DNA of 64,000 bases from Patescibacteria group bacterium (GCA_041650915.1 JBAZKE010000005.1:11310-75309); one strand, 5' to 3'. Positions 9,801 through 35,529 are shown, numbered from the stretch's first letter. The notes: generated by a model from the letters alone, not told the origin. Translations and numbers: made by a program.

Positions 9801-10637
9801 TCACGTGTAGTACTGCGTATTATCCCGCAGCTGGTCGAATGAAAATATGGGCCCGTCTTTGCACACGTACAAGTCCCCGATCGCGCAGTGCTGGCACGTG
9901 CCGAGGCCGGCGCAGTGCATCCTCCGTTCGAGCGACAGGTAAATGTCTTCGTCTTTGTATCCAACCTTCTGCACTTCAGGCACCACAAATTTGAACATGA
10001 TCGGCGGGCCGCACAGCACCGCGACACCGTTCTTCACGATATCCGCTTTTTCAAACAGCACTGTTATCACGCCTTTGTAGCAAGAAATTGCCCCGAACGT
10101 TTCATCGTTGCCCTGGTCCATCGACATCGTGATGTTGAACTTTTTCGCGTGCTGCATGAGCTCATCACGCCACAGAATTTCTCCGTAATTCCGGCATCCG
10201 TACAGCAACTGAATCCGCCGGTTTTCCGTATCGAGTTCGTCCCTATTGGAGAGATAATGGATGAGCGAACGGAGCGGGACAAGCCCGAGGCCGCCGGCAA
10301 TGAGCAGAATATTTTTCCCCTTAAATTTTTTCAAATCGAATCCGTTGCCGTACGGGCCGCGGACGCCAAACGAATCCCCTGCATCAAACGTATGGAACTT
10401 CGAGGTAACCCTGCCGACCTTCATTACTCCGATATCATACGCATTCTTTATTGTCAGCGACTCCGCCGGCACAAACACCGACTCCCCGAAGCCGGGAATG
10501 GAAAAGACAAAGAACTGCCCCGGCAAATACTCCAATCCCTTGCCGTCTTTCATGGTAAACGTAAACGACTTCACGCTCGGCGATTGCTGCTTCGTGCTGA
10601 TGATGGTCGCTCCTCTGTGTTCGTACGGATTGCGCAT
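9801..10637 (-). CDS. hydrogenase gamma subunit (FNR-like FAD/NAD(P)-binding oxidoreductase with a C-terminal Cys cluster; HydG/AsrB-like)
   Basis: 278 aa. Has a PGQFF FAD-binding-like motif, GGLGLVP, and a C-terminal CxxGxCxxC cluster (CAGLGTCQHCAIGDLYVC) for a 2Fe-2S centre. Confidence 0.85.
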   Translation of the reverse strand: MRNPYEHRGATIISTKQQSPSVKSFTFTMKDGKGLEYLPGQFFVFSIPGFGESVFVPAESLTIKNAYDIGVMKVGRVTSKFHTFDAGDSFGVRGPYGNGFDLKKFKGKNILLIAGGLGLVPLRSLIHYLSNRDELDTENRRIQLLYGCRNYGEILWRDELMQHAKKFNITMSMDQGNDETFGAISCYKGVITVLFEKADIVKNGVAVLCGPPIMFKFVVPEVQKVGYKDEDIYLSLERRMHCAGLGTCQHCAIGDLYVCKDGPIFSFDQLRDNTQYYT

Positions 10638-10723
10638 ATGGTACTGTCATTCTGGCCCCGGACAAAGCCACGGAGGGAAAACCCCCCGTAACGCTAATAA
10701 AACTAAACCCGTTACAATAGCCC

Positions 10724-11743
10724 TCACCTGTTCTTTTCTTGCCCTTGCGTGCTTGTACGACCCCTTTCCTTATGCTCACGCAGGTACTTGAAAACGTCAG
10801 CGCGCTTAATGCCGACCGGGCATACCCTGTCGCACCTGCCGCAGTTCACGCAGCCCATGATCTGGAACTCCTTCGGCGTCCGCACCCACTTGTGCGTATA
10901 CCAGTTCTGGATGCGCTGGGCGTTCGTCTTGAGAAACTTCTGTCCGCCGCCGATCTCGGAAAAATCGTTGTAAAAGCAGGTTGTCCACTTCCGGACGCGC
11001 CTGCCGCTCCCCTTTTCCTTCGTATCCTGCTCGTCCTCAATATTGAAGCAGTAGCAGGTCGGGCAGTCTACCGCGCACTTGCCGCACGCAGTGCAGATCG
11101 CCCCCCAGTGCTCCCACGCGTCCTGTGAAGCTTCAACAATCTCCTTACGGTGGCGCTCGAGCTCGGGGTCAATGCCCTCTTCTTTCAGAAGCCCGGCAAA
11201 CTCGATGTGCTCAAAATCCTTGATGCCGAGCTCTTCGAGTATCACCTGCCCCTTTTCCGATCCGGTAAAAACCTTCCACGCCGCTTTCCCCGTCTTTGCA
11301 AGGAAAATATCGAAAATTATGTGCTCGAGAATGTCCTCCTCGTACCGTTCCCTGAGGTGCCCGGAAAAACCCGATCCCTCGAACAGCGCATGCCCGACGA
11401 GCAGGCTCGTTTGGCGTTTTTTCTGGTAGTACGGGTCGCGCTCGAACGTCTGGTGGAAAAGCCCGACAGCTTTCAGGTCCATCACGGACATCAGAAAAGC
11501 GCACTCCGGCGCATACTGCAGCTTTGGCTTGAGCATCGTGCCCTTTTTGTAATCGAAAAGTGTTTCACGCTTCGGCAGGAGCACGTGTTTGAACGTATTG
11601 ACCGGGATTTGGGGCGAGAAATCGATCTCACCTATGTCCGTTACGCGCTGTACGTACAGTTCGCTGCCGTCCCGTACCGGTGCGTACATCGCATACGCTT
11701 CCAGCAGGTGCGCGATAAATTTATGTAACGTTGCCCGATTCAT
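10724..11743 (-). CDS. hydrogenase beta subunit (HydB/AsrA-like, two 4Fe-4S ferredoxin motifs)
   Basis: Has CTACGKCAVDCP and CVNCGRCDRVCP motifs. The track ORF runs to 11959, but that would overlap the upstream gene's terminator. The start at ATG 11743 (MNRATLHKF...) gives 340 aa, the family-typical length. Confidence 0.8.
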   Translation of the reverse strand: MNRATLHKFIAHLLEAYAMYAPVRDGSELYVQRVTDIGEIDFSPQIPVNTFKHVLLPKRETLFDYKKGTMLKPKLQYAPECAFLMSVMDLKAVGLFHQTFERDPYYQKKRQTSLLVGHALFEGSGFSGHLRERYEEDILEHIIFDIFLAKTGKAAWKVFTGSEKGQVILEELGIKDFEHIEFAGLLKEEGIDPELERHRKEIVEASQDAWEHWGAICTACGKCAVDCPTCYCFNIEDEQDTKEKGSGRRVRKWTTCFYNDFSEIGGGQKFLKTNAQRIQNWYTHKWVRTPKEFQIMGCVNCGRCDRVCPVGIKRADVFKYLREHKERGRTSTQGQEKNR

Positions 11744-11792: not shown

Positions 11793-11830
11793 ATAAAAAT
11801 CCCCCACGAAGAAGCGAGGCTCCGCAGGGG
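11793..11830 (-). terminator. intrinsic terminator hairpin after the CHAP/CTD gene (copy 1 of a duplicated terminator)
   Basis: Minus strand: cccctgcggag-cctcgctt-cttcgtggggg followed by ATTTTTAT. An 11-bp stem with G-U wobbles. Nearly identical to 35530..35567. Confidence 0.6.
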
Positions 11831-11865
11831 ATTTGGATGACAGGCCTCCCGGACGGGAGGGAGTA

Positions 11866-14800
11866 CTACTTGAGCAGTACCATTTTTTTTGTTTGCACGG
11901 CGTCCCCCGCGCGGATGCGGTAAAAATAGATGCCTGATGCGTACCGGCCAGCGGCCCACGAGATTTCGTGCTGGCCAGCAGTCTGGTATTCGTCAACGAG
12001 CGTTGCTACCTTTTGTCCGAGGATGTTGTACACGGAGAGCTCGACCATGCACGCGGTCGGCAACTCATACACAACCGTCGTTACGGGGTTAAACGGATTC
12101 GGGTAGTTCTGCCGGATAACGAGTTCTTCGGGCAGGACGTCATCACCCAGCTTATACGCATAGTGCGGGATATCAAGCGGGATAATGCCGGCCTCAACGG
12201 TATCGCCCGCGTTGATAGCTGCGGCAATGTCACGAGCAAGGAGGTCGCACGGACTCGCGTTGCCGCTGATCCAGCAGTCGATGGGGCTCGCACGGATAAG
12301 CGAATCACAGTACGTAATCGCCTGGGAAACCGACGCTCCGTCAGCGCTCACGGAATCCGACAGCGAGAGCCGGTATGCCGCGGCGTTCAGCATCAGCGCG
12401 GCAAGCTGCTGCTGTGCCTGGGATTGGATCGTTACGTAGCAATACGGGCCGGTTCGTTTTGCCATGACCGCATAACGCTCGGCGTTTTTGACCTCGAATT
12501 CCCGATGGCACACGCGCCTGTTGAAGAGCCCTGCCAGCTGCCCGAGCCGAGCGGAGCATTCCGGTTCATCGCTGATCACGACGGACCGAATGGGATGCGC
12601 ACGGTTCCCGTTGAAGTGGCGTTTGATGCGGTCAGCGAACGCGCAGAGGCTGTCGACAGGCTCAACGCCGGACGAATCGCCGTACACGATCTCATTGAGT
12701 TCGTGCCGCCAGTAGCTGGACCGCTGCTGGTTCGGAACGATATCCAGCTGCGTCAGCGAAAATGCCACACTGGCGTCCGCGCCCTGCAATACGGATACCG
12801 CTGCGAGATCGGAATCGGCCGCATACCCCAGCGGCGGCAGTATTCCGACCGAGTACTCGCCCGTAAGCACGTGCGGCAGTTCAAACGATCCGCTCGCGTC
12901 GGTATGCGCCGTGTATTGGCACACGCCGAACGTATCGCACACGTCAACCGCAACGCCGCGAACGCCTGCCATCGCGTCGTCAACCACGGTTCCGGAAATG
13001 GAGCCGATCGGCGCTGATCCCGCGACGAGCGCGTACGGATACGCGTCATGCGGGATATCGATGGCCTCAACCCCAAACGTCCACTCGCCGGCTGCGTCCG
13101 GCACGAACTCCGCTGTTATCGGCGGCTGGCTGGACTGCCATTCGCCGAATACGGTCCCGTCAGGACGGTACGCCGTCAGCTTGAGCTCGCTGCCGAGCCA
13201 GTTGAGCAGCAGCCGCCAGGTCTCGTGGAAACTGTCAATTACGAAATCCCACAATGAAGTGTCGCCTTCATCTATGTAGCCTTCGACGCCGCCTTCCTGC
13301 GTATACGCATCCGGCAGCTGATCTCCAGTCTCCTCCAATAACATGGCAGCGTGGTAGAGCGCGGCGATATCTTCATCCGTCAGCGCCCGATCGTACAGGC
13401 GAACCTCATCAACCGTGCCCGGCAAAAACCCGTCGAAATTGCTGTATCGCCCGATACGAAGGTTCTTGCCATAATTCTGTATGGTTCCGCTCAGCGGGCA
13501 TGAGCCGATGAACTCCGCGTTAACGAATAGCTCTATGGCAGACCCGTCATACGTTCCCACCACGAAGTACCAATTCCCAGGCGTCCAAAAACCATTGTCA
13601 GTTCCCACAGAAGCGTGGGAGCCGGCTGTCACCGAGAAAAGGAACTTCGCGTAGTATTCGCCGTCGTACTGGTCGCCGCACGCTCCAAGGTGGTACTGGT
13701 AATACGGAAACGCGTGCCGCAGATACCCCTTGTCGAAAAGAGGATCGTTGCCCGTGCCCTGGAATGACACCGGCCGGTACCATGCCGCGAGCGTGAGAGC
13801 ATTCGGAGGATTGAGGCTGGCCGCATTGCCGAGATCGATATGGTCGTCAATGCCGTCGAAATCCAATGCCAGGCCGGATATCCCGTCAACCGGAGTAGCG
13901 CCGTATACGGTGCCGTCATTGCCATTCCCCGAATTATCGCCCGCATCCCCAGCATCGAAACTCCAGTAAGCGACCAGGCCGGCTGACAGCGGGTCTACCC
14001 GGATCTTTAGCGTCAGCCCTTCCCCGGAAAAATGCTCTCCCGAGTGCGGCCGGTACAGCGCCACGTACAGGTAGTAGTCACCCGGCGTAAAAGGAGCCTG
14101 AATCTGGAATGAATACAAACCCTGTCCGCCGGGATTAACCAATCCTTCGGGATCGCCTTCCGTAGAAACAATGGCTACACAATTGGGATCAATCCAGTCG
14201 TACGCCAATTCGGATGGCAATCCGTCACTCCACGGTTCAGCGCTTCCCGGACCGGTCACCGATTGCAGCTCCACATAGTGCGGGCTGTTCTCATCATTGG
14301 TCCAGTACGCCGTGCCGAGATTATTGAACGTAAACGACACATTCAGTACCTGCCCAGGAGCTACCGGATAATAGTCCAAGCCGGGTGGGTAGATGGGGGT
14401 TTGGGAGGACCAGCAGGCGTCGTAAGTACCACCATAGTCAGGATCCCGGAGCCAGCCTTGGGTAACATACGCACCACTACTACTAAATGATCCTACACTA
14501 TAGGGCGGGTTAGATGATAGAGAAAGCTGTTTCGGATCCGGCTCTATTTGACCATCGGTTCGATTCTGATCAATCATCAGCACATAGTCCGGCCCAACTT
14601 CCATTATGATTCCTACGTGACCAGCATTATCATGCTCCGGCGCAGGGCCAAAACAGATAATGTCGCCCGATTCCGGTGGAATAATGGACTCGCCATTTAC
14701 ATACTGATCAAGAGTGTCAGTACTCGCCCATGAATCGAAGGCATTTTTGGCCACTCCTCCACTGATGGGATTAAGTGGGTTTAATACCTCAAACTCATAG

Positions 14801-15033
14801 AAACGCTTCACATACTCGACACACTGATAAAAGCCGCAGCCTCCTCCAGTCCAATCACCATTGGAGTGGGCAGTAATTCCTCTGAACTCAGCGAGTGGAC
14901 AGCCATAGTTACCGGAAGCCCATTGCCCCTCCTGACCACAGTCTTCATCAAAGTAGATCTCAGGACAATCAGCAAACGATGGTGTGGAGAGTAAATTCCA
15001 TACCATGAGACACAAGAACATCACGTGTTTCAT
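11866..15033 (-). CDS. secreted multidomain protein: N-terminal CHAP peptidoglycan amidase/peptidase domain, LamG/concanavalin-like domain, carboxypeptidase-regulatory-like domain, C-terminal T9SS-type sorting domain
   Basis: 1055 aa. Signal peptide (MKHVMFLCLMVWNLLSTPSFA). CHAP region (CGFYQCVEYVKRFYEF ... HVGIIMEV). LamG-like (WYRPVSF...VDEVRLYDRALTDEDI). CTD NYPNPFNPVTTVVYELP...VYNILGQKV...SGIYFYRIRAGD...MVLLK. Confidence 0.8.
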   Translation of the reverse strand: MKHVMFLCLMVWNLLSTPSFADCPEIYFDEDCGQEGQWASGNYGCPLAEFRGITAHSNGDWTGGGCGFYQCVEYVKRFYEFEVLNPLNPISGGVAKNAFDSWASTDTLDQYVNGESIIPPESGDIICFGPAPEHDNAGHVGIIMEVGPDYVLMIDQNRTDGQIEPDPKQLSLSSNPPYSVGSFSSSGAYVTQGWLRDPDYGGTYDACWSSQTPIYPPGLDYYPVAPGQVLNVSFTFNNLGTAYWTNDENSPHYVELQSVTGPGSAEPWSDGLPSELAYDWIDPNCVAIVSTEGDPEGLVNPGGQGLYSFQIQAPFTPGDYYLYVALYRPHSGEHFSGEGLTLKIRVDPLSAGLVAYWSFDAGDAGDNSGNGNDGTVYGATPVDGISGLALDFDGIDDHIDLGNAASLNPPNALTLAAWYRPVSFQGTGNDPLFDKGYLRHAFPYYQYHLGACGDQYDGEYYAKFLFSVTAGSHASVGTDNGFWTPGNWYFVVGTYDGSAIELFVNAEFIGSCPLSGTIQNYGKNLRIGRYSNFDGFLPGTVDEVRLYDRALTDEDIAALYHAAMLLEETGDQLPDAYTQEGGVEGYIDEGDTSLWDFVIDSFHETWRLLLNWLGSELKLTAYRPDGTVFGEWQSSQPPITAEFVPDAAGEWTFGVEAIDIPHDAYPYALVAGSAPIGSISGTVVDDAMAGVRGVAVDVCDTFGVCQYTAHTDASGSFELPHVLTGEYSVGILPPLGYAADSDLAAVSVLQGADASVAFSLTQLDIVPNQQRSSYWRHELNEIVYGDSSGVEPVDSLCAFADRIKRHFNGNRAHPIRSVVISDEPECSARLGQLAGLFNRRVCHREFEVKNAERYAVMAKRTGPYCYVTIQSQAQQQLAALMLNAAAYRLSLSDSVSADGASVSQAITYCDSLIRASPIDCWISGNASPCDLLARDIAAAINAGDTVEAGIIPLDIPHYAYKLGDDVLPEELVIRQNYPNPFNPVTTVVYELPTACMVELSVYNILGQKVATLVDEYQTAGQHEISWAAGRYASGIYFYRIRAGDAVQTKKMVLLK

Positions 15034-15112
15034 TAGAAACCTCCTTAAGCAACTAGTTCAACAGTTACAGTTAATTGAATTGTCAATTTACTATTTTCCT
15101 CCTATGCTTTTT

Positions 15113-15820
15113 TTATGTTAGTTTAAGTGTTGAAATTATCATTTCTATAACATCAATTTCACTCGAAAGGTCTGTTGCGGCAAAGTTTTGTTCGTAGGTC
15201 GCGTTGTCCGATAGAGGATAAATGACCGAATACTCTGCGTATAACACCCTATCACCGACTTGTGGAAAAATTGTTGACTCATTTCCTAAATACCATGCTT
15301 TTATTTTACTATCAACGACAACAACGGTAGTAGGCACTTCACGTTCATGAATGGTTACTGGATCACCTGGCACATACTTTCCATTATATGTCACAAAAAA
15401 GTAAGTCCTACTGGTTAATAAATATGAATCATCAACCTTCTTGATACCTAATTCTAACTCTCGATCATTATTTTCACTTGAAAACCTCACAAATTTTGCA
15501 TCGCCTGATAGGTTTGGATTATCAATTAATTCAACATCCTCGACTGTCCACTCGGACGGGATTTTTATCGAGTATCCGTGCTCTTCATTCTCATACGTCA
15601 ACCAGTCTGAGGTATCGATGTCTGAAAGAGTGGCTGTATTTGTGTTCTCGTTTGAATTAGCATCGGTATTAATATTGGTCGCTGTATTCACATTTTCATT
15701 GGTGGCAACAATATTCGTAGTATTCGTATTCCCCTCATTATCCTGAAAAAACAGGAAATACCCGCCAGCCAGGATAATGGCGGCGATGAGGACGCTGACG
15801 ATAAGTGTTGTTTTTGACAT
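15113..15820 (-). CDS. membrane-anchored N/T-rich protein, paralog family member A (possible partner of the adjacent hydrolases)
   Basis: 235 aa. Starts MSKTTLIVSVLIAAIILAGGYFLFFQDNEGNTN, then an N/T-rich low-complexity linker, then DTSDWLTYENEEHGYSIKIPSEWTVEDVEL. Paralogous to 16705..17367 and 31881..32609, and more weakly to 35604..36266. Confidence 0.6.
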   Translation of the reverse strand: MSKTTLIVSVLIAAIILAGGYFLFFQDNEGNTNTTNIVATNENVNTATNINTDANSNENTNTATLSDIDTSDWLTYENEEHGYSIKIPSEWTVEDVELIDNPNLSGDAKFVRFSSENNDRELELGIKKVDDSYLLTSRTYFFVTYNGKYVPGDPVTIHEREVPTTVVVVDSKIKAWYLGNESTIFPQVGDRVLYAEYSVIYPLSDNATYEQNFAATDLSSEIDVIEMIISTLKLT

Positions 15821-15918
15821 GATCTTTTTTGGTTAGAGATTAAGTGTATGACATATATACAGTATATATGACCTATACCCAATTTCCAACTTCCTAACTA
15901 CCTTCTAAAAACTAACAA

Positions 15919-16608
15919 CTAACTACCAAACTTGAACGTAAACGACACATTCAGTACCTGCCCAGGAGCTACCGGATAATAGTCCAAGCCGGGTGGGTAG
16001 ATGGGGGTTTGGTCGGCGTAGGTGGCTTCGTAGAACTTGCCAGGAGTGTTTTGCACAATCCAGGCAATAGGATCAACCCAGCCGTTGTATGGAGGTGTAA
16101 CCGGTAACTCGAGTGCCCCATACGGATCGGGGGGCATGTCTCCACCAGGATGAACTCCAAAGTGTAAGTGAATCCCATATGACCACGGACCAACAATCGC
16201 AATCTCTTCACCAGCTTTAACCTCATCTCCTTCTCCCAAGCCACTTCTGACATGACCATAGACCGCAACAAACTCCGTCCCGTCTTGAAGGGTATGAAGG
16301 ATGAACAAGCCTACGTTATCATCTCCCCAGCCGCCATCACCGACATCCAGAATCTCGCCGTCTGCTATTGCATAGACGGGATCCCAAAGGTAGGTAGCGA
16401 TATCCCAGCCGATGTGATAGAAACCAGGAAAGTAGGTTCCATTAGGCGGGGGCTCCTCAAGCCACGCCGCATAGTCTCCGAGTTCACTGGTGCCAGTCGG
16501 ATAATAAAACCCGGTAGGCGTCTGCTCAAGCGTCTGTGCATTTACTATGATATTACCAAGCATCATAGTCAGCACAACAACAATTACAACCATTACTGCT
16601 TTCATCAT
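15919..16608 (-). CDS. secreted M23/LytM-family peptidoglycan endopeptidase
   Basis: 229 aa. Signal peptide. HIGWDIA...AIADGEI...GHV...GIHLHFG (HxxxD ... HxH M23 active-site pattern). The C-terminal 27 aa are identical to an internal segment of the 11866..15033 protein. Confidence 0.8.
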   Translation of the reverse strand: MMKAVMVVIVVVLTMMLGNIIVNAQTLEQTPTGFYYPTGTSELGDYAAWLEEPPPNGTYFPGFYHIGWDIATYLWDPVYAIADGEILDVGDGGWGDDNVGLFILHTLQDGTEFVAVYGHVRSGLGEGDEVKAGEEIAIVGPWSYGIHLHFGVHPGGDMPPDPYGALELPVTPPYNGWVDPIAWIVQNTPGKFYEATYADQTPIYPPGLDYYPVAPGQVLNVSFTFKFGS

Positions 16609-16704: not shown

Positions 16705-17367
16705 TTATAGTAATTCAAATGTGCTGACAAACGCATCGTACAATTCTTCGCGTTCTGAAGTGAATACAGGTGCGAATTGACTCCCTGTTGCAATCTGGTA
16801 GTAATATGTTTCTCCAAGCAGAATAGAATTTGCACCAATCTTCCTTGTACCACTTTCCAACTGAGCAGTGGCATTATATCTCCATGCGTCTTTGTTGTTA
16901 ACAGAGATAGTTAAATATTCGTTTTTATCGTTAACAGAAAGAGGCACTCCACTATTTACTAACTCATTTAAAGTATTTGCACCCGCATTGTTGCTTGCTA
17001 ATATCCGAATGACCAGGTCACCTATCGAAAAATTAACAATATACCCCAAATCCTCGTCATCATTGATCCCACTAGTCAACTCTTGATAAGTCGCATCACT
17101 TGGATACTTCACAGAATACCCATACTCCTCGTTCTCATACGTCAGCCAGTCTGAGGTATCAATGTCTGAGGTAAGGGCGTTGACATTAGTATTTTCATTG
17201 TCATTAGTGGCTGTGTTGACATTGGTGGCATTCATATTCTGATTAGCAGCAACAGTATTGGCGTTATTGGTATTATCACCCTCATTATCCTGAAAAAACA
17301 GGAAATACCCGCCAGCCAGGATAATGGCGGCGATGAGGATACTGACGAGAATGGTTGGTTTTGACAT
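16705..17367 (-). CDS. membrane-anchored N/T-rich protein, paralog family member B
   Basis: 220 aa. MSKPTILVSILIAAIILAGGYFLFFQDNEGDNTNN... DTSDWLTYENEEYGYSVKYPSD. The first 30 aa are almost identical to 15113..15820. Confidence 0.6.
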   Translation of the reverse strand: MSKPTILVSILIAAIILAGGYFLFFQDNEGDNTNNANTVAANQNMNATNVNTATNDNENTNVNALTSDIDTSDWLTYENEEYGYSVKYPSDATYQELTSGINDDEDLGYIVNFSIGDLVIRILASNNAGANTLNELVNSGVPLSVNDKNEYLTISVNNKDAWRYNATAQLESGTRKIGANSILLGETYYYQIATGSQFAPVFTSEREELYDAFVSTFELL

Positions 17368-17626
17368 GATTTTTTTTAGGTTAGATGTTAGTTATTAGAT
17401 ACGTATTTATATTATATAACGTATGTACCCAATAACCTACGGCAATCAGCACGAAATTCGAAACTCATCTTGTGGCCATGTTTAGAACATTTGAATTTAA
17501 ATATTTAGATATTGTTTCGAGTTTCGGATTTAGAATTTCGGATTTAATCCCAACATGCCTCCGCAACATATACGTTGGGGAAGATTCGTATCTGCCTCAA
17601 ACCAGCTCTAAAAACCGTCCGTGCCG

Positions 17627-20506
17627 TTAACTCCTTTTTTCCTTTTCAGCGGTTGTGCTCTCCCCGCTGTGCAGCGGAATCAGAACGTTGAACGTTGATC
17701 CCTTTCCAATGCCATCGGACTCAACCCAAATATTGCCTCCGTGCGCTTCGGCGAGCCGCCGCGCAACGTACAGCCCGAGGCCGGACCCGTCGGGGTTGAC
17801 CTGCGCGATGCCGTACCCGCGCACGAACTTCGTGAACAGCTTCTTCGCCTCTTCCGGCTCTATGCCGCGGCCGGTATCCTTAACCGCAAAATGCATATAC
17901 TCGCCGTGCGGTTCGGCGATGAGCGTAACGGACCCCTCGTCAGTGTACTTGATCGCGTTGTCGGTGAAGTTGAGCACGATATCGCCGAGCTTGTCCTTAT
18001 CCGCAAACACAAGCGGAAGCTTTTTCTTCGGTTTGTGAAAAATCAGCTTGAGCTTTTTCTCGTCCGCCGCCTGCTGCACCATCGACATGACCTTGTCGAC
18101 AACCTCCTCAATGTGGACTGGCGTACGGTTGAGTTCGAGCCGCCCTGACTCGATCTTGGACACATTGAGGAACAGGTTGATGATGCGGATCATGCGCTGC
18201 GACTCCTCGAGCAATCCCACGAGTATCTTGTGCTGCTCTTTCGGCACCTTGCCGAAATCACCCTGCAGGATCATTGACAAATAGCCCATAATGCCCGTCA
18301 TCGGCGTCCGGAGCTGGTGTGACGTGATCGATACGAACTCGGATTTAGCCTGGTCGAGCTGCTGCAAATGCTTGTTCGCCTCGCCGAGGTCTTTATTTGA
18401 CCGTTCGAGCTGGCGGTACAGCTCGATGTTCCGCGATACGATGCCGGACTGGTTGGCAAGCGCTTTCATGATAGAGATGTCGGTCGGCTTGATCTGGCCG
18501 GGCTCGTGGGCGAGCAGATAGACAATAGCGCCAACGATTCCCTCTTCCGAATAGATCGGGACGGAAATCACCGTCCGCACCTTGAGCAGCTTCTGCATTT
18601 TCTGTACGATTTCCTCCGGAACGGCTGGCGAGAGAAAGTCGGTAAACTCCGTGCCGATCTGCACCTGGCCTCCCTTAACGGTTTTCACCGTCCTGCTCTT
18701 GCTCGTCGTGTAGTCGCCCCAATACTCGCTCATCGGCTTTGGCAGCAGCCCGAGGGCTTGCTTGATTGGCTGGCTTTGCGTCACCGCATCGGCAAATAGC
18801 CGATGCCGGTCTTTCCCGAGGAAGAGCACGATGCCGCCAATGTACCCGAGCTCGGTCGCGATGCTGTCCGCTATCGTCTGTGTCACTTTATGGAAATCGA
18901 GCGTGCGGGTGATGAGGTTCGTGACGTTCTGCAGCGCTGACAGGAACTTATTCCGCTCCTGGAGCTGCAGATTGGTATTGCGCAGGTCTTCCGTGGAGAT
19001 CGCAACCTCTTTTTTAAGCCGCTCGGTGAACTGCTGGGCTTCTTCATATAACCGCGACTTCTCGAGCGCGGAAGCGAGCTGCGGCCCGATCAGCTTAAGC
19101 AAGTTCAAATCTTCGGAGCCGTACGGATCGCCGGACAGCTTTTGCCCGAGCACCATAATGGCGGTGAGTTCGCTTCCCGTCGTGATCGGCGCGACGATCG
19201 TGGCATCGAGGCCATCGAGCTCTTTTTTCGACTCTTCGAGGCCTTTCCGATCCGCTTCATGCTGCGTATCTTCGATCTTCCGCTCGAGCCCCTCAAGCAC
19301 GACTACCTCCTGCGATGCGCGCATGTACTTCACGAGCGCGCTGTTGTGGCTGATGCGCTGTTTATAATCATGCTGGTCACGTTCCGCGAGTTCAGCCAAA
19401 ATTGCATCGTCAATCTTTTCACCAGTTCCCGGATCGATCCTTCCCCTGCGTTTATAAAAAGCTCCACCCGATGCTCCGGTCAGATAAATGCTCGTATTCT
19501 TTACCTTGAGGTCTTTTTCCAGTTTTCTTGAAAGTGAAAATAAGAGTATATCCAAATCAATTTCGCGATTGATGATTTCGGAAAGATCAGTTAAGAGTTT
19601 TTGGTAGTCAACACGTGCTTTAAAGAAAAGGGTGTCAGTCGCCGCGCCTATCCATTTTTTTAAAGGATCTAATATTAAGACAATAAAAATTGAAACGACC
19701 AGTGCAATTAATAATCTTAGAGGAGTGTTCAATACTGCTTGAGGCAAACTGATTGTCATAACTACCACTGTCGTGGCAATAATAAATACTAGAACAGAAT
19801 AGGTAATAGTGCGTAGCACTACAAAACGAATATCTAATAATCGATGCCTAACAATAGCATAAGACATGAAACCAATCATAAAAACAGAAAAGGATGGACC
19901 GATATTACCAAACTCCACGCTAAAAAATCGAGGCAATATTAAATTTACACTAAAAGCAGAAATGATAAAGAGTATTATTCCCAGAAAAGTATACTTCAAT
20001 TGCAATTTACTCACACCAGATGACTTTCGAAATTTCTTGACAAATAAATACAAGATATATATTACATAGATTGCAGCATATAAAATATAATAATTAACCC
20101 CTGGTCCAAATACATCTCTTGGATCCAAACCTTTAATTACAGCGACACTCGAATCAAGTTTAATTAGAAACGGACTTGTGAAAATCGTGCCTAAAAAAAA
20201 GATTCCTCCCAGAATCAAAATATAAAAGAATACTTTATTTTCTTGCCTATCTCGCCTAGGAAAATTCTTTAAAAAAATTAAAAAAACAATCAAGGCAATA
20301 GTACTAAAAAGGTAAGAAAACTTTACCCAAAGAACATGTTCACCTGATAATCTGGTGATTAGTACCGAACAATTCCACGTGGCAATAAATAACGTTGTCA
20401 ATGCAAACAAACGATTGATAACTGCCCGTTTCCGAGAATAAACAAGGTAGCCAAAAAAAATACTCAATAACGTGGTCAACCCTAAAATGATATTTTCTGG
20501 ATTCAT
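17627..20506 (-). CDS. sensor histidine kinase: N-terminal multi-TM sensor domain, GAF domains, HisKA, HATPase_c
   Basis: 959 aa. About 8 TM helices. H-box SHQLRTPMTGIMGY. G-boxes DTGRGIEPE...GSGLGL. Starts 3 bp after the upstream methyltransferase stop. Confidence 0.85.
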   Translation of the reverse strand: MNPENIILGLTTLLSIFFGYLVYSRKRAVINRLFALTTLFIATWNCSVLITRLSGEHVLWVKFSYLFSTIALIVFLIFLKNFPRRDRQENKVFFYILILGGIFFLGTIFTSPFLIKLDSSVAVIKGLDPRDVFGPGVNYYILYAAIYVIYILYLFVKKFRKSSGVSKLQLKYTFLGIILFIISAFSVNLILPRFFSVEFGNIGPSFSVFMIGFMSYAIVRHRLLDIRFVVLRTITYSVLVFIIATTVVVMTISLPQAVLNTPLRLLIALVVSIFIVLILDPLKKWIGAATDTLFFKARVDYQKLLTDLSEIINREIDLDILLFSLSRKLEKDLKVKNTSIYLTGASGGAFYKRRGRIDPGTGEKIDDAILAELAERDQHDYKQRISHNSALVKYMRASQEVVVLEGLERKIEDTQHEADRKGLEESKKELDGLDATIVAPITTGSELTAIMVLGQKLSGDPYGSEDLNLLKLIGPQLASALEKSRLYEEAQQFTERLKKEVAISTEDLRNTNLQLQERNKFLSALQNVTNLITRTLDFHKVTQTIADSIATELGYIGGIVLFLGKDRHRLFADAVTQSQPIKQALGLLPKPMSEYWGDYTTSKSRTVKTVKGGQVQIGTEFTDFLSPAVPEEIVQKMQKLLKVRTVISVPIYSEEGIVGAIVYLLAHEPGQIKPTDISIMKALANQSGIVSRNIELYRQLERSNKDLGEANKHLQQLDQAKSEFVSITSHQLRTPMTGIMGYLSMILQGDFGKVPKEQHKILVGLLEESQRMIRIINLFLNVSKIESGRLELNRTPVHIEEVVDKVMSMVQQAADEKKLKLIFHKPKKKLPLVFADKDKLGDIVLNFTDNAIKYTDEGSVTLIAEPHGEYMHFAVKDTGRGIEPEEAKKLFTKFVRGYGIAQVNPDGSGLGLYVARRLAEAHGGNIWVESDGIGKGSTFNVLIPLHSGESTTAEKEKRS

Positions 20507-20508
20507 AT

Positions 20509-21219
20509 TTACTCAGCTCTTGCTATAATCAGCTCAAACTGGTCTGAATAGGTGAGGCGGCAATCAATTATATGGAAATTGGTTTTTTCTAAAAGGCACC
20601 TAATATCATTTTGAAAAAAATATCTTAATCGTAAAGAAAAATACCGTCGCTTAATGTTGACGAGAAAGGAAGAAATAATACGAGGATTTCTAATCATCTT
20701 GTTGAGTAACCCGTGCCGTAAATCACTAAAAAATATTTTCAATCTATTCGATCCCTTTCTTGGATAAGTTAAAATAAGTAGTCCCTCTTTTCTTTTCAAT
20801 ATCCGATTAAATTCTCTTAATAACATTTCCGGCGATTGAACATCCCAAATAACGCTCAAGCATACCACGATACTAAAATAATTCTTTTTGAATGGTGTTG
20901 ATGAATCTAAATCGATATTTTGTAAGTGGACCCGCCTACCAAAAAATTTTTTCTCCAAATAACTAATAATCTCAGCTTGGTTATCAATGCCCCAAACTTC
21001 AACATAAGGGAACAAACTTTTAAATCGATCTAGGAAATTTCCAGTCCCAGTGCCCGCGTCAAGTAATCTACTTGCTCTTCTCTTTAAAATGTCACCTCTA
21101 AACTCTCCAATAATCTCGATAATGTCCGACATCATTCGATTATACGAAGGGCTGTTTTGGACAATTAAATCATAGTCGTCTAAATAGCTCGACCAAAAAT
21201 CTTTTTTTTCACTCTTCAC
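20509..21219 (-). CDS. SAM-dependent methyltransferase (class I)
   Basis: 236 aa. The LDAGTGTGNFL glycine-rich motif I. Overlaps the upstream ligase gene by 11 bp. Confidence 0.7.
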   Translation of the reverse strand: MKSEKKDFWSSYLDDYDLIVQNSPSYNRMMSDIIEIIGEFRGDILKRRASRLLDAGTGTGNFLDRFKSLFPYVEVWGIDNQAEIISYLEKKFFGRRVHLQNIDLDSSTPFKKNYFSIVVCLSVIWDVQSPEMLLREFNRILKRKEGLLILTYPRKGSNRLKIFFSDLRHGLLNKMIRNPRIISSFLVNIKRRYFSLRLRYFFQNDIRCLLEKTNFHIIDCRLTYSDQFELIIARAE

Positions 21220-22705
21220 GATTATTTACATACTTATTTTTAATCCCTGAGGACATATTCCCACGAATAAAATCTATAATAATCGGGGTATAATTTATGT
21301 GAGTTACTGCATCTGCAAACTCCCGATTATTTTCCTGGATCTCCTTAGTAATTATTTTTCTAAAATCTTCACGCAAAGATTCCGATCCCTTAATATCCTT
21401 TTTTAATTCTATCAAAATTGAAATTATGGGTTCTTGGTTTTGATTCTCCTTTTTTTCAACAATAAATCTTCCTGTATGATGACGCGCGATGTGTTTGTTG
21501 CTCAAGGCTCCTTTAATATTTTCAATGTATACATTTGCCCCCCTAAAAGTCACCCCTCCGTCACTTCGACCAGCAATCAACAAAAACGGAAACTTCATCA
21601 TCAATTGCAAAGAACCCTCGTAGGTTCCGATAATTTTCTCAATATCGATATCAAACCTCAATAACTCCGTCTTCATTCGCTGAAAAGTTATTACGTCGCC
21701 TAAATCATGGATGTTGTATCTCACCAATGGCGATATCGACCTAGTACTTGCGATGACTTCGTTATTTACAGCCTCAGCAAAAAAATTAATCGGATTATAC
21801 TGAAATAGCATTGGTGTCATATTCGAAAATCTAGAGAAAACCTCGTTTGCCACGGAGTGGTCAGCAAAACAAGCTCTACGAATCTTTATCGAAAGTGGTG
21901 TTTCAAAACCAGTACCTCGACCAAATTCCGTAACGCCATAACTCGATTGAATTCTTTGAATAATATCCCTCTCGTCACTAATTTCTAATAATTGGGCGAG
22001 ATAATCACGAAGTCCCTCAGGAAAGCCTTCTCCTCCGGTATTAATGTATACTTTTATTTTTTTATGAAACCCCAAACGATTCACCTTTTCAATTAAATTT
22101 TTTATAAAGGGGGGGTAACCAGTAATAATAACCTGATCGTAATAAGAAGAGAAAACCTCGAGAATACTAATCACTGTATTTATATCAGGGCCTGGGTTTA
22201 CACTCAAAAGAGAATATCTTTTCTTATACCCAATCTCTTTAATTAAGCGAGACACTTTCTCACCGCTCGGCCAGATACCGAATGCATAGCAATTAATAAA
22301 AAGTGTAGAACGCCTATCTACGTTACCAATAGTACGTAATAAAAACTCAAATTGTTTTCTAGTTTGATAATCTTCCTCCGGAGATCTTAAAAAAAATGTT
22401 GTTGCGCCAGAATAGCCAGAACTTCCTTCTAAAGAATGTGCCCGTTTTATAGCACTCTTAATAGATCTATCGAAAATATTAAACCTACTCAGGTAACTTG
22501 TCTTATCAATAATGGGCAATGCTCGAAATTCCTGGAAGGAATTAATTTTCTTAACCGACGCTCCTTTCTCTTTCAAAAAAATACAATAAGCCGAAACTTC
22601 ATTTATTGTATCATTATAAAGCTTAATAGCATTCTTTATACTATCTCGATGCATATTCCTTATTTTTCTCCTTGCAATAGGAAATAGTAAAGCCTGAAAA
22701 TCCAT
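21209..22705 (-). CDS. adenylate-forming enzyme of the PaaK/coenzyme F390 synthetase-like family
   Basis: 498 aa. GSSGYSGATTFF (P-loop-like), SSYGVTEFG (YGxTE), IAGRSDGGVTFRGANVY (cf. PaaK GRxDDMIIxRGVNVFP). Confidence 0.65.
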   Translation of the reverse strand: MDFQALLFPIARRKIRNMHRDSIKNAIKLYNDTINEVSAYCIFLKEKGASVKKINSFQEFRALPIIDKTSYLSRFNIFDRSIKSAIKRAHSLEGSSGYSGATTFFLRSPEEDYQTRKQFEFLLRTIGNVDRRSTLFINCYAFGIWPSGEKVSRLIKEIGYKKRYSLLSVNPGPDINTVISILEVFSSYYDQVIITGYPPFIKNLIEKVNRLGFHKKIKVYINTGGEGFPEGLRDYLAQLLEISDERDIIQRIQSSYGVTEFGRGTGFETPLSIKIRRACFADHSVANEVFSRFSNMTPMLFQYNPINFFAEAVNNEVIASTRSISPLVRYNIHDLGDVITFQRMKTELLRFDIDIEKIIGTYEGSLQLMMKFPFLLIAGRSDGGVTFRGANVYIENIKGALSNKHIARHHTGRFIVEKKENQNQEPIISILIELKKDIKGSESLREDFRKIITKEIQENNREFADAVTHINYTPIIIDFIRGNMSSGIKNKYVNNREE

Positions 22706-22711
22706 ATTAAG

Positions 22712-23410: not shown

Positions 23411-23682
23411 ATTCCTACTTTTTTCAAGTCAGAAAAAACGACAAAACATCAAATACCCTAGTATTTATATGCTCCTCGACTGTGCGAGTTATATTCATAT
23501 GATTTTTCTTTGTATTTTCTGGCGCCTTAATTATAACAAAAACTCACCCTTAAGAAAAGAGGTCTTATTAAAACATCCTTTTTACTTCCTTATCCTCTCA
23601 ACAGCCGGCAAGGCTAAACTCTAATCTTTAAATCCTAAACCCTAAACAATATCAAAATTCAAAATACTAATGTTCTAAACAG

Positions 23683-27582: not shown

Positions 27583-27744
27583 TTCTGTTGGTCATTCTGG
27601 GTCCCGCTTTTCGGGACGAAGAATCTTTATGGCGTAATTGAATGACTTTCTTAAATTATTTCACGGTAGGTTTCGAAACTCCCAGCTTACTCCTTCAGAT
27701 GGCTCCTTCCCTGCCTATGGGCAGGCCCACGCGATGTCGGAAAA

Positions 27745-31880: not shown

Positions 31881-32609
31881 ATGCAAGACCAGCCAAACGA
31901 GCCAAAGGAAATGTCAAAAACAACCGCCTGGATTATCCTCGGCGCTATCGTTGTAGTACTCGCAGCGGGAGGATACTACTTCCTGGCGCAGGAAAATGGG
32001 AATACAAACAGTTCAAATGCCGTCACGGTTACGAATACAATGGCGAATGAGAACGTAAATGGATCGATGAATGCAAATACTGAGTTGAATACGAATACAA
32101 CTTCCAATACCAACGAGGTTACGAATACAAATACCGAAGTTGATACCTCAGATTGGCTGACCTACACCAACAGCGAGTATGGCTATACCATGCAGTATCC
32201 CAGTGATTGGACGGTGGAAGAGGTTAAGCTGTCCGAAGATCCAGATAGCCGAGGTAGGATACCACCGTTAAGAGCTGTTAAATTTCGTAACGAGAATAAA
32301 AGGTTCTTATTAGTAATGTATTTGAAACCAATTACTGAACTCGGAACTCCATATATGAGCGCATCTCCTGCATGGGATCAAAGTGAATTCAAAATACAGG
32401 TTGGCCAGTACACCATATCGGCAATTAAAGAAACAAGCGAAGGAAGAATTCAAACTATTTATATCCCTGGACCATCGCAATTGGTACAGCTGGGTAGTTA
32501 CGATTTTGCAGCCTATCTCATTGACTACTCCGATAATGACGCAAGGGATTTATCAAAGAACAATGAGTACTATGTAATACTCGAAATCCTCAAAACCCTC
32601 AACATATAA
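31881..32609 (+). CDS. membrane-anchored N/T-rich protein, paralog family member C
   Basis: 242 aa. A TM helix (WIILGAIVVVLAAGGYYFLAQENGNTN), an N/T-rich linker, then DTSDWLTYTNSEYGYTMQYPSDWTVEEVKL. Confidence 0.6.
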   Translation: MQDQPNEPKEMSKTTAWIILGAIVVVLAAGGYYFLAQENGNTNSSNAVTVTNTMANENVNGSMNANTELNTNTTSNTNEVTNTNTEVDTSDWLTYTNSEYGYTMQYPSDWTVEEVKLSEDPDSRGRIPPLRAVKFRNENKRFLLVMYLKPITELGTPYMSASPAWDQSEFKIQVGQYTISAIKETSEGRIQTIYIPGPSQLVQLGSYDFAAYLIDYSDNDARDLSKNNEYYVILEILKTLNI

Positions 32610-32684
32610 AACAAAAGGAGGATAATAAAAAAACGTATTTTGACAACTAGAACACTGTAACAATCAAACTGAAGGAGGTCTGAA

Positions 32685-35495
32685 ATGTTTTTCAGAACCA
32701 CTGCAATTGCAATTGCCACATTCTTTTTGGTAGTGCCAGCGTTAATCATGGCAGATGAAAATGAATGTGGTGGAGTTGTCTATCTGGGAAACCAGTATGA
32801 TTGCTGTCCCAACGGGAGTAACTGTGTATGGTGGGCATATGCCCAACGTCCTGATCTCGAAGATGAGGGTGTACATGGGTATGGGAAAGATTGGTGGGTA
32901 GACGCTCAAGGTAATGTCAGTACTGGCACTCAAGCAAAGGTTGGCGCTATCGTAGGATTTAGCGAAAACTATTTTGACGATAATCCTTACGGTCACGTTG
33001 CCTATGTACAATGGGTCAACACTGATGGATCATTTGAAGTCTCAGAAATGAGCTGTAATTACGGACCGAGTGGCGTCACTTACAAACACTATACCAGTAC
33101 TGATCAAGGTTTTATCTACGGCGGCCCCGTACCGTTCTACGAACAGCGCTCGCCGGAAGGAGCCATCAACTGGCGGGAATCTCACTTGCTGACCGAAGCC
33201 AATCCCTACTCCGGTCATACCTCGAGCCACCAGCCGTTGTCAGCATTCGGATCGCGTGACCAGTGGGGCATGCACTGGTACCACAATTACATCATTTCCA
33301 GCCAGGACAAGTTCTTCTCCGACGGTACGCCGAAAAACTGCTATGTCCAGGGCTACGTGGGTCGTTCTGGAGGGTATGGGTATGACGGTGCGGTCGTGTA
33401 CGATGCGCTTGGCGGTGCCCGGTCGGCGTACGTTGTCGGCTGGGACCAGTGGGACGTGTGGCATGAGCTGCTGCCGTACGGGGATTACCATTTTGATCCC
33501 GGTGATGGCGGTCCGAATTCATCTTTGGGCATGCCTATCACCAATTCCTATTGGACCGGCTCAGTGTGGCGGCAGGATTTCCAAAAGGGATACCTGTCGT
33601 ACGGAACTGTCCATGGGTACGGTGATGACGGCGCGCTGTGTGCTCCGGGATGGAGCACGTCAGGATGGAATCATCGTTATTCATACCTCTTTACCGAAGC
33701 GTACGAGCGTAATGGTGCAGCGGTTCGGGTCGGTAAATCGTTTAATAAGAACGGGACCAACGGCAAGGTCATGAACTACGTTGGCGATTACCTTATCCAG
33801 TACTTCAGCGGGGGAGTTAATGGAGAGGGAGCTATTGTCTACGACATGAACAACTGGGCAGGCAATCCCGCAGCCACCAACGAGGCCTACTACCTCTACG
33901 GCAACTTCTACACCTACTGGACAACGGTATCTGATATCGGCCCATGGGTACTTGGCGCTCCGACAACCGACCGCACGGGTAACGTACAGTACTTCAAGTA
34001 CGGTCGCATGGTCGATGACAACGGCGTCACCCGGGTATACCTCGGCGAGCAGGAGATCTGGAACAACCAGGTTGGTGCTGTTGGCGGCCTAGACCCGATT
34101 GCAGACGGCCACGAAGACCTCGCCTGCATGTACGGCGGGCGTTCAACCATGCATATCCCGGTATGGCTCTCCGACGGTACCCAGTTTAACCTGGATAACG
34201 GCCTGGCGGGTTGGTACGGATCGTCATCCTGGCCTGTGGCGAATATCCGGCACGTTGTGGAAGGCGATTTCAATGGGGATGGCCTCGATGATATCGCCGA
34301 TTTCTACGACTACGGACTGCAGCCAAATGGCACGTACCAGACGCGGATCCACGTATTCAAGTCAACCGGCTCCAGCTTCGTGCTCTCCGGCGGCCCGCAG
34401 GGGTGGTGGAAAGCAGATGGCTACACTGCCAGTCACGTCGTCCACGCGGTCGCAGGCGACTTCAACAACGACGGTAGGGATGACATAGCCTCCCTGTACG
34501 ACTACCCCGAAACTGAAGCGCGGATCCATGTGTTCATCTCGACCGGATCCTCGTTCACCTATTACGGCCCGGTCGGATGGTGGCACGTCACTTCCGGGTA
34601 CAACACCGATTGCGTGAGGCATATGGCCGCGGGCGACTTCAACGGGGACGGAAAGAGCGACATCGCCGCGGTCTACGACTACGGCGGCGCCCAGACGAGG
34701 ATACACATGTTCCTGTCAACGGGCAGTTCCTTTGCCTACCAGGGTCCGTCAGGATGGTGGAGTTCAACCGGATACTACGCGAGTACGGTCGTGCACGCGC
34801 TGCCCGGTGACTTCAACGGGGACGGCAGGGACGACATTGCAACCCTCTACGACTACGGCAACGGTCAATCGAGGATTCATGTATTCCTGTCGACCGGCTC
34901 GTCGTTTGTGTACCAGGGTCCTACGGGTTGGTGGAACAACATCGGGAGCGGGAGCTACCATGCGCAGAACGTCAAGCGAGCCGCAGCAGGCGACTTCAAC
35001 GGGGACGGAAAGGACGACGTGACGCTTGCCTACCGCTACTCGGCAAATGAAGCCCGGTTCCATATGTTTCTGTCGAGGGGAACGTCGTTTCGCCAGAACA
35101 ACGCAGCAACTGGCTGGTGGTCCAGTACAGGCTTCTCGCTCGATGCCGTGTACGGCATGGTGGCGGGCAGGTTCAACTGGATCGGCTCGCCGAAAATCGC
35201 ACAGCCGGAAGAAAACCGTGGGCCTCTTCCGACAGCCTTCACCCTGTCCCAGAACTACCCCAATCCATTCAACCCTACTACCACCATCTCCTACGCTTTG
35301 CCTGAGGCAACGCACGTGGAACTGCACGTGTACAACATCCTCGGACAAAAGGTAACAACGCTCGTTGACGAATACCAGACTGCTGGCCAGCACGAAATCT
35401 CGTGGGCCGCTGACCAGCACGCGTCAGGCATCTATTTCTACCGCATCAGGGCGGGCGATGCCGTGGAATCGAAAAAAATGGTACTGCTCAAGTAG
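32685..35495 (+). CDS. secreted CHAP-domain protein with multiple FG-GAP/VCBS-like repeats and a C-terminal T9SS-type sorting domain
   Basis: 936 aa. Signal peptide. CHAP region (CCPNGSNCVWWAYAQR ... GHVAYVQWV). About 7 repeats of the form GDFNGDG.DDIA..YDY. The CTD NYPNPFNPTTTISYALP...VYNILGQKV...YFYRIRAGDAVESKKMVLLK matches that of 11866..15033 almost exactly. Confidence 0.8.
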   Translation: MFFRTTAIAIATFFLVVPALIMADENECGGVVYLGNQYDCCPNGSNCVWWAYAQRPDLEDEGVHGYGKDWWVDAQGNVSTGTQAKVGAIVGFSENYFDDNPYGHVAYVQWVNTDGSFEVSEMSCNYGPSGVTYKHYTSTDQGFIYGGPVPFYEQRSPEGAINWRESHLLTEANPYSGHTSSHQPLSAFGSRDQWGMHWYHNYIISSQDKFFSDGTPKNCYVQGYVGRSGGYGYDGAVVYDALGGARSAYVVGWDQWDVWHELLPYGDYHFDPGDGGPNSSLGMPITNSYWTGSVWRQDFQKGYLSYGTVHGYGDDGALCAPGWSTSGWNHRYSYLFTEAYERNGAAVRVGKSFNKNGTNGKVMNYVGDYLIQYFSGGVNGEGAIVYDMNNWAGNPAATNEAYYLYGNFYTYWTTVSDIGPWVLGAPTTDRTGNVQYFKYGRMVDDNGVTRVYLGEQEIWNNQVGAVGGLDPIADGHEDLACMYGGRSTMHIPVWLSDGTQFNLDNGLAGWYGSSSWPVANIRHVVEGDFNGDGLDDIADFYDYGLQPNGTYQTRIHVFKSTGSSFVLSGGPQGWWKADGYTASHVVHAVAGDFNNDGRDDIASLYDYPETEARIHVFISTGSSFTYYGPVGWWHVTSGYNTDCVRHMAAGDFNGDGKSDIAAVYDYGGAQTRIHMFLSTGSSFAYQGPSGWWSSTGYYASTVVHALPGDFNGDGRDDIATLYDYGNGQSRIHVFLSTGSSFVYQGPTGWWNNIGSGSYHAQNVKRAAAGDFNGDGKDDVTLAYRYSANEARFHMFLSRGTSFRQNNAATGWWSSTGFSLDAVYGMVAGRFNWIGSPKIAQPEENRGPLPTAFTLSQNYPNPFNPTTTISYALPEATHVELHVYNILGQKVTTLVDEYQTAGQHEISWAADQHASGIYFYRIRAGDAVESKKMVLLK

Positions 35496-35529
35496 CACCG
35501 TCTTTTCCAAGAAAACCTGTCATCCAAAT

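Follow-up and report, generated by a model that had tools for sequence, protein, structure and literature searches.

An 81-bp sequence occurs twice, base for base, in a 64,000-nucleotide (nt) stretch of DNA from a Patescibacteria group bacterium (GCA_041650915.1, JBAZKE010000005.1:11310-75309; hereafter, the window). One copy lies inside the gene of a predicted secreted hydrolase of 1055 amino acids (aa) with a CHAP domain, here called the CHAP giant, and the other at the end of the gene of a 229-aa M23 metallopeptidase. Our explanation is that the perfect identity of the two copies reflects a recent non-allelic gene conversion on an old, truncated M23 stub, and for this explanation as a whole we estimate a probability of about 75%.

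The repeat and the probable conversion signal

The two copies lie in minus-strand genes at 14324-14404 and 15932-16012, with 0 mismatches, and none of 100 shuffles contained a match to the repeat string. The initial annotation had reported an exact direct repeat of 82 bp; an exact-match search did find an exact repeat twice, but its length is 81 bp, and while the second copy had been placed correctly at 15932..16012, the first lies 7-8 nt to the left of the reported 14331-14412. No dispersed exact repeat of the window exceeds it in length, and the single longer one is tandem (84 bp, near 62.9 kb).

On the minus strand, the two copies share one reading frame and encode QTPIYPPGLDYYPVAPGQVLNVSFTF, which corresponds to residues 211-236 of the CHAP protein and residues 200-225 of the M23 protein, and the spacing between them (1608 bp) is a multiple of three. 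The first copy, the likely conversion donor, covers codons 211-236 plus partial flanking codons of the giant (11866..15033, minus strand, MFA5135395.1) and marks the start of a segment that we call module X. The second, the likely acceptor, forms codons 200-225 at the 3′ end of the M23 gene (15919..16608, minus strand, MFA5135397.1) and would be the vestigial stub of such a module. Beyond the repeat, the CHAP giant goes on with NNLGTAYW…, and the M23 protein, as already noted in the initial annotation, loses the identity and stops after KFGS.

The flanks of the repeat break sharply. The copies differ in the base that precedes the repeat (A vs C), and on the 3′ side (in the sense of the minus strand) only 14 of 60 nt match, which is the chance level. 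On the 5′ side, 25 of the first 60 nt and 18 of the next 60 are the same. A repeat search extends the match to 101 nt at 92% identity, the 5′ extension being weak (12/20), and BLAST detected no similarity between the CHAP giant and the M23 gene beyond the repeat and this weak extension. At the protein level, a weak likeness upstream of the repeat (14/52 aa) was treated as chance or linker composition.

A relative, a Logan contig of 3126 bp from SRR12487018 (L001), is 80.6% identical to the window at the nucleotide level and keeps the same gene order, namely anchor B, M23, anchor A, and CHAP, where the anchors are paralogous membrane-anchor genes. The two copies of the window and the two of L001 were aligned over 101 nt. 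Ten informative sites in this alignment join the two copies within each genome, and six of the ten are synonymous (codons read by eye). Three sites join the orthologues, all of them within the 5 nt that adjoin the repeat on its 5′ side and belong to the head-specific linker, and the third possible grouping has no informative site. Over the repeat itself the window paralogues agree at 81/81 positions, and the window repeat agrees with the L001 CHAP copy at 69/81 but with the L001 M23 stub at only 54/81, which is why the CHAP copy was likely the donor. Given the 12/81 divergence of the orthologous CHAP copies, the chance that 81 sites would stay unchanged without conversion is ~2e-6.

The L001 copies are 86% identical to each other, in a tract shifted 20 nt upstream, and the L001 stub has decayed at its 3′ end, with an 8-nt deletion and a frameshift. 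The tract of the window spans the whole stub, up to what appears to be the ancestral junction. These data bear on the idea that purifying selection on the protein held both copies together with no exchange of DNA. The peptide QTP.YPPG.DYYPV.PGQ is indeed conserved in distant family members, which speaks for such selection; yet these homologues share the motif at only about 77% aa identity, the drifted and frameshifted stub of L001 looks unconstrained, and selection on a protein leaves synonymous sites free, so that the six synonymous sites among the ten genome-specific shared differences are left without a cause. We give this idea almost no credence.

The same contigs speak to a possible assembly artefact, in which one sequence was collapsed or duplicated, or M23 and CHAP alleles of different strains were wrongly joined in series. 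The window comes from a metagenome-assembled genome (MAG), and exact repeats are the places where de Bruijn graphs branch. However, the serial order of stub, anchor, and head is also found in L001 and in two further Logan contigs, L043 and L044, that is, in other runs assembled by a different pipeline, and the L001 copies differ at 11/81 positions, so no collapse occurred there. The same 79-kb contig is present in NCBI, JGI, and ENA, and, reasoning on the assembly graph, any path other than the observed linear one would either miss a head or an exit of the repeat or form a cycle. The concern about a collapsed repeat, raised in the initial annotation, is thus answered by three independent assemblies with the same architecture, and we regard an artefact as highly improbable.

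Two further tracts in the window point to the same conversion process, at the 5′ ends of the anchor genes and in the tails of hydrolase genes that carry sorting domains of the type IX secretion system (T9SS). The 5′ end of anchor A with 10 nt upstream of it (15727..15830, minus strand) is 91% identical over 104 nt to the 5′ end of anchor B (17274..17377, minus strand), with an exact core of 61 bp (15732-15792 = 17279-17339); the L001 orthologue of anchor B has a different N-terminus (MDNQPEK…), which resembles that of a third anchor, anchor C. The other tract (11795..12045, minus strand) comprises the T9SS sorting domain of the giant and the downstream terminator region and is shared with the gene of a 936-aa CHAP/FG-GAP protein on the other strand (35316-35565). 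The copies lie 23 kb apart and match over 183 nt at 90% and 50 nt at 96%, with exact runs of 57 and 35 bp. In all, four of the long exact repeats of the window fall in its three anchor-hydrolase pairs.

Ectopic gene conversion and concerted evolution are well known for bacterial paralogues, as in tufA/tufB of Salmonella, rRNA operons, and pilE/pilS and opa of Neisseria. The present case resembles them in that paralogous segments of the window are closer to each other than to their orthologues, the tract is short with diverged flanks, and the process recurs in each lineage. It differs from them in the acceptor, which would be a 26-codon vestigial domain stub on an otherwise unrelated catalytic gene rather than a full paralogue. 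Nor does anything at this locus point to antigenic or phase variation.

An old stub in related lineages

The initial annotation had taken the C-terminus of the M23 peptidase for a transplanted fragment of the CHAP giant. This is not borne out by the relatives. The M23 protein of L001 ends in a stub, …YADQTPQYPPGRDYYPVAPGLIVSWSLVG*, and L043 and L044, which come from two further runs, start inside a stub (stub 1) that ends DYYPVAPGQILDVSFTFEFGH*. The sequence downstream of L043 stub 1 aligns with the junction of the window (SFTFEFGH* vs SFTFKFGS*), and this orthology implies that the truncation predates these lineages. In the window, the post-junction codons, (K)FGS and the stop (15919..15931, minus strand), follow immediately after the repeat and would mark an ancestral illegitimate junction, orthologous in L043 stub 1 and decayed in L001.

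The joint between head and stub tells the same story. The M23-type joint “(A/S)(T/S)YADQTP” is common to the window, L001, and P0012, a full-length protein with an M23 head, module X, a β-helix, and a tail, whereas CHAP genes read “WSSQTP”, “YSSQTP”, or “CTSRTP” there. Because an orthologous stub is found in L001 and L043 and the joint is shared with P0012, the M23 stub is best read as a remnant of its own module X and not as a fresh graft. Between the window and L001, the synonymous divergence (dS) of the M23 head is about 1.4, with a ratio of nonsynonymous to synonymous divergence (dN/dS) of 0.08, which means strong purifying selection; dS is 0.42 for the CHAP head and 0.7-1.0 for the anchors. 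By these comparisons, the truncated M23 gene appears to be ancient and under purifying selection, with a stub that descends from its own module X.

A recent, one-off transplant would have joined a CHAP fragment to a complete, shorter M23 gene in a single event. A match of 81 bp at 100% identity that breaks off abruptly fits such an event, as does the greater closeness of the window repeat to the CHAP copy of L001 than to its M23 stub. Against it stand the M23-specific joint and the occurrence of stub and downstream junction in orthologous position in both L001 and L043, even at dS values of 0.4-1.4, together with the fact that distant M23 homologues of the same head type are usually the N-terminal heads of much longer proteins. 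We therefore consider a transplant very unlikely.

Wider searches returned few close relatives. A scan of the GTDB species representatives with the M23 protein gave only two distant matches, in Saccharibacteria and Helicobacter MAGs. A scan of JGI metagenomes with the M23 alignment gave 37 loci, with full-length matches at ≤47% identity and two short partial ones at 54% and 67%; none of these 37 M23 loci has the stub, and the M23 head type normally sits there on long multidomain proteins, often after an anchor gene. Look-ups of the exact proteins (the window M23, the giant, and P0001) gave no match, the source contig lying outside the index.

L043 and L044 also carry an extra cassette, made of an anchor gene (anchor D), a CHAP-type-2 head, and a second repeat stub, between the M23-type stub junction and a further anchor gene. 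Hence, in L043:1-1963 and L044:1-1449 the order is stub 1, anchor D, CHAP-type-2 head with stub 2, and another anchor, with two repeat stubs in series. Stub 2 of L043 is truncated 20 nt earlier than stub 1, and its protein (P0163) reads on for ~50 codons into AT-rich former intergenic sequence. The intergenic region from anchor to head is 92% identical between L043 and L001. Judging from these contigs, the relatives differ in cassette content, and conservation is concentrated at the cassette borders.

We propose the following history. The window carries two tandem units, each with a membrane-anchor gene and a hydrolase gene, of which the downstream CHAP hydrolase is full length. The upstream M23 hydrolase would be an ancient truncated family member that kept the first 26 codons of its own module X, beyond which an old illegitimate junction would lead into the sequence upstream of the next anchor gene. 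In its truncated form, the gene would have been retained as a working stand-alone secreted M23 peptidase, with putative activity. Its stub, still homologous to the intact module 1.6 kb away, could undergo non-reciprocal homologous recombination (ectopic gene conversion), which would be repeated and independent in each lineage and presumably RecA-dependent. The latest tract in the window would be limited by the ancestral junction on one side and by the head-specific linker codons on the other, and copying from CHAP to the stub would have made the two segments the same at every base, hence the perfect in-frame direct repeat. We infer that the stub has no function of its own. The initial annotation had seen in the repeat a footprint of recombination between modules of secreted hydrolases, and this part of it holds insofar as homologous recombination explains the identity, with the CHAP copy as the probable donor; the stub, however, would be ancient and native to the M23 gene.

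Several points weigh against gene conversion on an old stub. The comparison covers two related lineages on short contigs, and its signal comes from a segment of ~100 nt in four to six copies. For the direction of conversion, the evidence is the similarity to a single outgroup copy, and a consensus or assembly effect may conceivably have removed the last few differences between the copies. The truncation could have arisen by deletion of the tail between two full-length tandem genes or by insertion of an anchor-CHAP unit into a gene with an M23 head, module X, and a tail. Finally, two independent truncation junctions, that of the window type and that of L043 stub 2, lie within 20 nt of each other, which could mean more than passive decay.

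Module X, the anchor genes, and their surroundings

The M23 protein consists of a signal peptide, an M23 head, and the 26-aa stub. It matches Pfam PF01551 with 47.2 bits (cut-off 28.7) and has both metal-ligand motifs (HxH / HxxxD-type; IHLHFGVH and YHIGWD), so that catalysis is predicted from sequence. The CHAP giant, from the same Patescibacteria-group MAG, contains, in order, a signal peptide, CHAP, module X, LamG_3, a conserved “WLGSEL..YRPDGT” domain, CarboxypepD_reg, a helical region, and a T9SS C-terminal sorting domain (CTD). Its residues 64-157 match CHAP (PF05257) with 35.9 bits (cut-off 26), and residues 977-1052 match PF18962 (T9SS type A CTD, Por_Secre_tail) with 35.6 bits (cut-off 27).

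Module X (13999..14421, minus strand) spans giant residues about 205-345, a predicted all-β segment of ~140 aa for which no Pfam match above threshold was found. It is ~60% identical in aa sequence to the equivalent segments of P0012 (M23, module X, β-helix, tail, T9SS CTD) and P0013 (CHAP, module X, LamG, dockerin), and the tail of P0012 is partly homologous to that of the giant (39% identity over 47% of the giant, E = 4e-141). An AlphaFold2 (AF2) model of the module is all-β with seven strands, at low confidence (pLDDT 54), and matches to N_BRCA1_IG (PF16158) at 16.8 and 17.6 bits, below the cut-off of 28, span nearly the whole profile. P0136 reaches 24.7 bits with this profile (cut-off 28); the distant relative P0162 scores 44.2 bits, but at residues 42-126, whereas its module X match lies at 165-275. 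Model and profile together suggest that module X is probably an NBR1/FW-like β-sandwich. A profile search of the PDB with the module gave nothing meaningful, and when the query was the N-terminal 384 aa of the giant, which take in CHAP, module X, and the beginning of LamG, two LamG matches and the M23 stub came back but the giant itself did not.

An exhaustive HMMER search of 1.84e9 cluster representatives with a module X profile gave 82 at E ≤ 1e-3, of which 18 at E ≤ 1e-10. Domain architectures were read from the ~20 best of the 82 representatives. Among these, module X begins ~180-220 residues in, directly behind CHAP or M23 wherever a head was detected, and next come FG-GAP, β-helix, or LamG domains, before a T9SS sorting domain or a dockerin. 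Across the family, CHAP and M23 heads thus swap places on module X, in agreement with the module shuffling put forward in the initial annotation. As the module stands behind either head, the repeat would encode the linker, rich in Pro and Tyr, and the first strand(s) of a head-adjacent module.

Modular peptidoglycan hydrolases with shuffled domains are familiar from lysostaphin/LytM-type M23 enzymes and from CHAP/M23 endolysins and autolysins. The hydrolases described here are like them in that CHAP and M23 heads, both above Pfam thresholds, are alternatives on common downstream modules. They are unlike them in their accessory modules, which are not SH3b, LysM, or cell-wall-binding domains (CBDs) but module X with LamG, β-helix, or FG-GAP domains and a T9SS domain or dockerin, and also in their host, a Patescibacteria MAG, and in the membrane-anchor gene before every hydrolase.

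Anchor A (15113..15820, minus strand, 235 aa) lies immediately upstream of the CHAP giant, and anchor B (16705..17367, minus strand, 220 aa) immediately upstream of the M23 gene. A third pair is located on the plus strand (31881..35495), with anchor C (31881-32609) followed by the 936-aa CHAP-type-2/FG-GAP/T9SS-CTD protein (32685-35495), whose five FG-GAP/VCBS-like repeats of ~180 nt each (34257-35039) are those of an ordinary repeat-domain protein. A low-GC membrane-anchor gene precedes every hydrolase gene, both at these three sites (15113-15820, 16705-17367, and 31881-32609) and in other contigs (L042:2789-3391, L043:278-964, and L047:6654-7418). The proteins share a transmembrane helix, N-terminal in anchor A, an N/T-rich spacer, the motif DTSDWLTY.NEE.GY..KYP (DTSDWLTY..EE.GYS in anchor A), a variable C-terminal domain, and a faint PsbP_2 match. 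The anchor motif is also found beside distant M23 genes in five loci (L002, L009, L011, L031, and L035) of the candidate phyla radiation (CPR, = Patescibacteria). The C-terminal domain of the anchor varies along with the hydrolase head, and the anchor protein could be a partner, inhibitor, or immunity protein of the hydrolase. In L047, a large serine recombinase gene (Resolvase/Recombinase/Zn_ribbon_recom; 10063-11664) lies directly downstream of P0132 (CHAP-X-FG-GAP-CTD) on the opposite strand, with no counterpart in the window.

The regions of anchors A and B are 76% identical over 325 nt, beginning ~63 nt upstream of both ATGs; correspondingly, the proximal ~63 nt of the interval between the M23 stop and anchor A (15821..15918, minus strand) are homologous to the region upstream of anchor B. 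A simple tandem duplication of an anchor gene and a hydrolase gene up to the repeat is insufficient to account for the locus, as the heads (M23 vs CHAP) are non-homologous and similarity between the anchors is limited to the 5′ third. A weak promoter-like site at 15889-15861, between M23 and anchor A, was not above background; promoter and terminator scans gave nothing beyond shuffled background, and an Rfam search of the window gave no match.

The sorting domains of the giant (11866-12045) and of the 936-aa protein (35316-35495) are unexpected in a CPR organism. As in T9SS cargo, both proteins end in Por_Secre_tail (PF18962/TIGR04183) above the Pfam threshold, and among full-length proteins their closest relatives belong to Zixibacteria, KSB1, and Ignavibacteria-type organisms. 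Neither an outer membrane nor a T9SS is known from Patescibacteria. Unlike the hosts of T9SS cargo, the contig is labelled Patescibacteria, and the relatives P0013 and P0130 bear dockerins instead. None of the open reading frames (ORFs) scanned in the 64-kb window is a T9SS component (such as PorK/L/M/N, SprA, or PorU/V), and from the Patescibacteria label it is doubtful that the host genome has the machinery. These signals could stem from horizontal transfer, from mis-binning, or from some other use of the domain.

Elsewhere, the window is a patchwork of ~33-38% and ~55-60% GC segments. Upstream of anchor B, a histidine kinase gene (17627-20506, minus strand; HisKA_7TM-GAF-HisKA-HATPase) forms an uninterrupted 959-aa ORF, midway in which, near 19400, the GC content drops from about 0.56 to about 0.31; it stays at ~0.33 through the next three genes (19400-24000). 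Two further HisKA_7TM proteins are encoded at 24081-25520 and 29666-31135. A GC-rich intergenic element of ~70-150 nt, with exact runs of 71 and 36 bp and no Rfam match, occurs in several copies at 27739-27991 and 28989-29220, which flank a small gene block at about 28.0-28.95 kb. Downstream of a 2516-aa secreted-type ORF (54636-62186), an ordinary repeat-domain protein with internal repeats of ~280 nt (58269-60022), a tandem array of ~90-nt units (62868-63107) contains the 84-bp exact run and inverted “GAGGAGGGGAAAA / TTCCCCTCCTC” motifs, also with no Rfam match.

Possible deletion product, cassettes, and meaning

According to the initial annotation, a deletion between the copies would fuse M23 to the CHAP protein and remove anchor A. 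In a computed product, loss of one copy and the intervening 1527 bp leaves an uninterrupted 1044-aa ORF that runs from M23 through module X and LamG to the tail and sorting domain, without anchor A and the CHAP head, and a comparable M23-X-tail architecture is natural in P0012, P0131, and P0133, with a β-helix where the giant has LamG. The predicted product is therefore sound, but no such variant was found. The comparison of fused and unfused forms among related strains, proposed at the same time, gave the unfused order of stub and anchor in L001 and L043/L044 and no window-type M23-X-tail fusion among the protein matches or loci searched.

This deletion product raises the possibility of a head-exchange array, in which units of anchor, head, and repeat are cassettes and the repeat is kept identical as a site for fusing M23, CHAP, or CHAP-type-2 heads to a shared tail; the repeat and the conserved 5′ ends of the anchors would then be portable homology for the gain, loss, and fusion of heads and their cognate anchors. 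Truncated modules do stand in tandem, each still homologous over a stretch to the full-length gene: the window has one stub and L043 two in series, and L043/L044 have the extra cassette of anchor D, CHAP-type-2 head, and stub. The borders (anchor upstream region and 5′ end, anchor-to-head intergenic region, and repeat) are kept while heads and anchor C-terminal domains vary, two independent stubs are cut within 20 nt of each other, and the pairing of anchor and hydrolase recurs in L042, L047, and distant CPR loci. The intact 1044-aa ORF and its natural counterparts point the same way.

Nevertheless, we consider an array unlikely. A fused or switched variant was observed nowhere among the sequences searched, and a deletion is irreversible, which ill suits a switch. 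With a signal peptide and a start of its own, and under purifying selection in its present form, each stub gene can work without any fusion, and clustering of the junctions near a domain boundary is also expected from selection for soluble truncated proteins. The 86% identity of the L001 copies and the decayed 3′ end of the L001 stub argue against selection for perfect identity, the role of the anchor as an immunity or regulatory partner is a conjecture, and no recombinase is nearby. Site-specific recombination and an integron-like or mobile-element origin of the repeat were rejected on similar grounds, as the repeat is a conserved coding sequence and no integrase, resolvase, or transposase was found in 9.8-37.6 kb of the window.

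In polymorphic toxin loci, orphan toxin/immunity cassettes occur downstream of cdiA and rhs genes. The locus is like these in its tandem truncated fragments with a small partner gene, in their short homology to the full-length gene, by which recombination could join them to that gene, and in the cassette number, which differs between L043 and the window or L001. Unlike these, it has the reverse polarity, with N-terminal heads that vary and a tail downstream of them that stays constant, each “orphan” is by itself a complete predicted secreted enzyme with its own start and signal peptide, and the VENN and PxxxxDPxGL motifs of polymorphic toxins are absent. Were the array reading true, it would be the N-terminal-head counterpart of the orphan cassettes of contact-dependent inhibition (CDI) and Rhs systems, by which episymbionts would possibly diversify their attack on host or competitor walls and their self-protection.

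Under the preferred explanation, gene conversion on an old M23 stub, the 81-bp repeat is an ordinary outcome of recombination between paralogues, a fresh example of a well-known process in a poorly sampled family. It offers a clean, datable case of how modular secreted wall hydrolases would evolve in an uncultured Patescibacteria lineage: heads are truncated off their tails, the vestigial homology is refreshed by conversion, and the in-frame repeat could re-fuse a different head to the tail. Defined alongside it are a rare, unannotated, predicted β-sandwich module that stands behind CHAP and M23 heads only, a recurrent pairing of hydrolase and membrane anchor, and a variation in cassette number between relatives, all of which may be relevant to the handling of peptidoglycan by CPR episymbionts.

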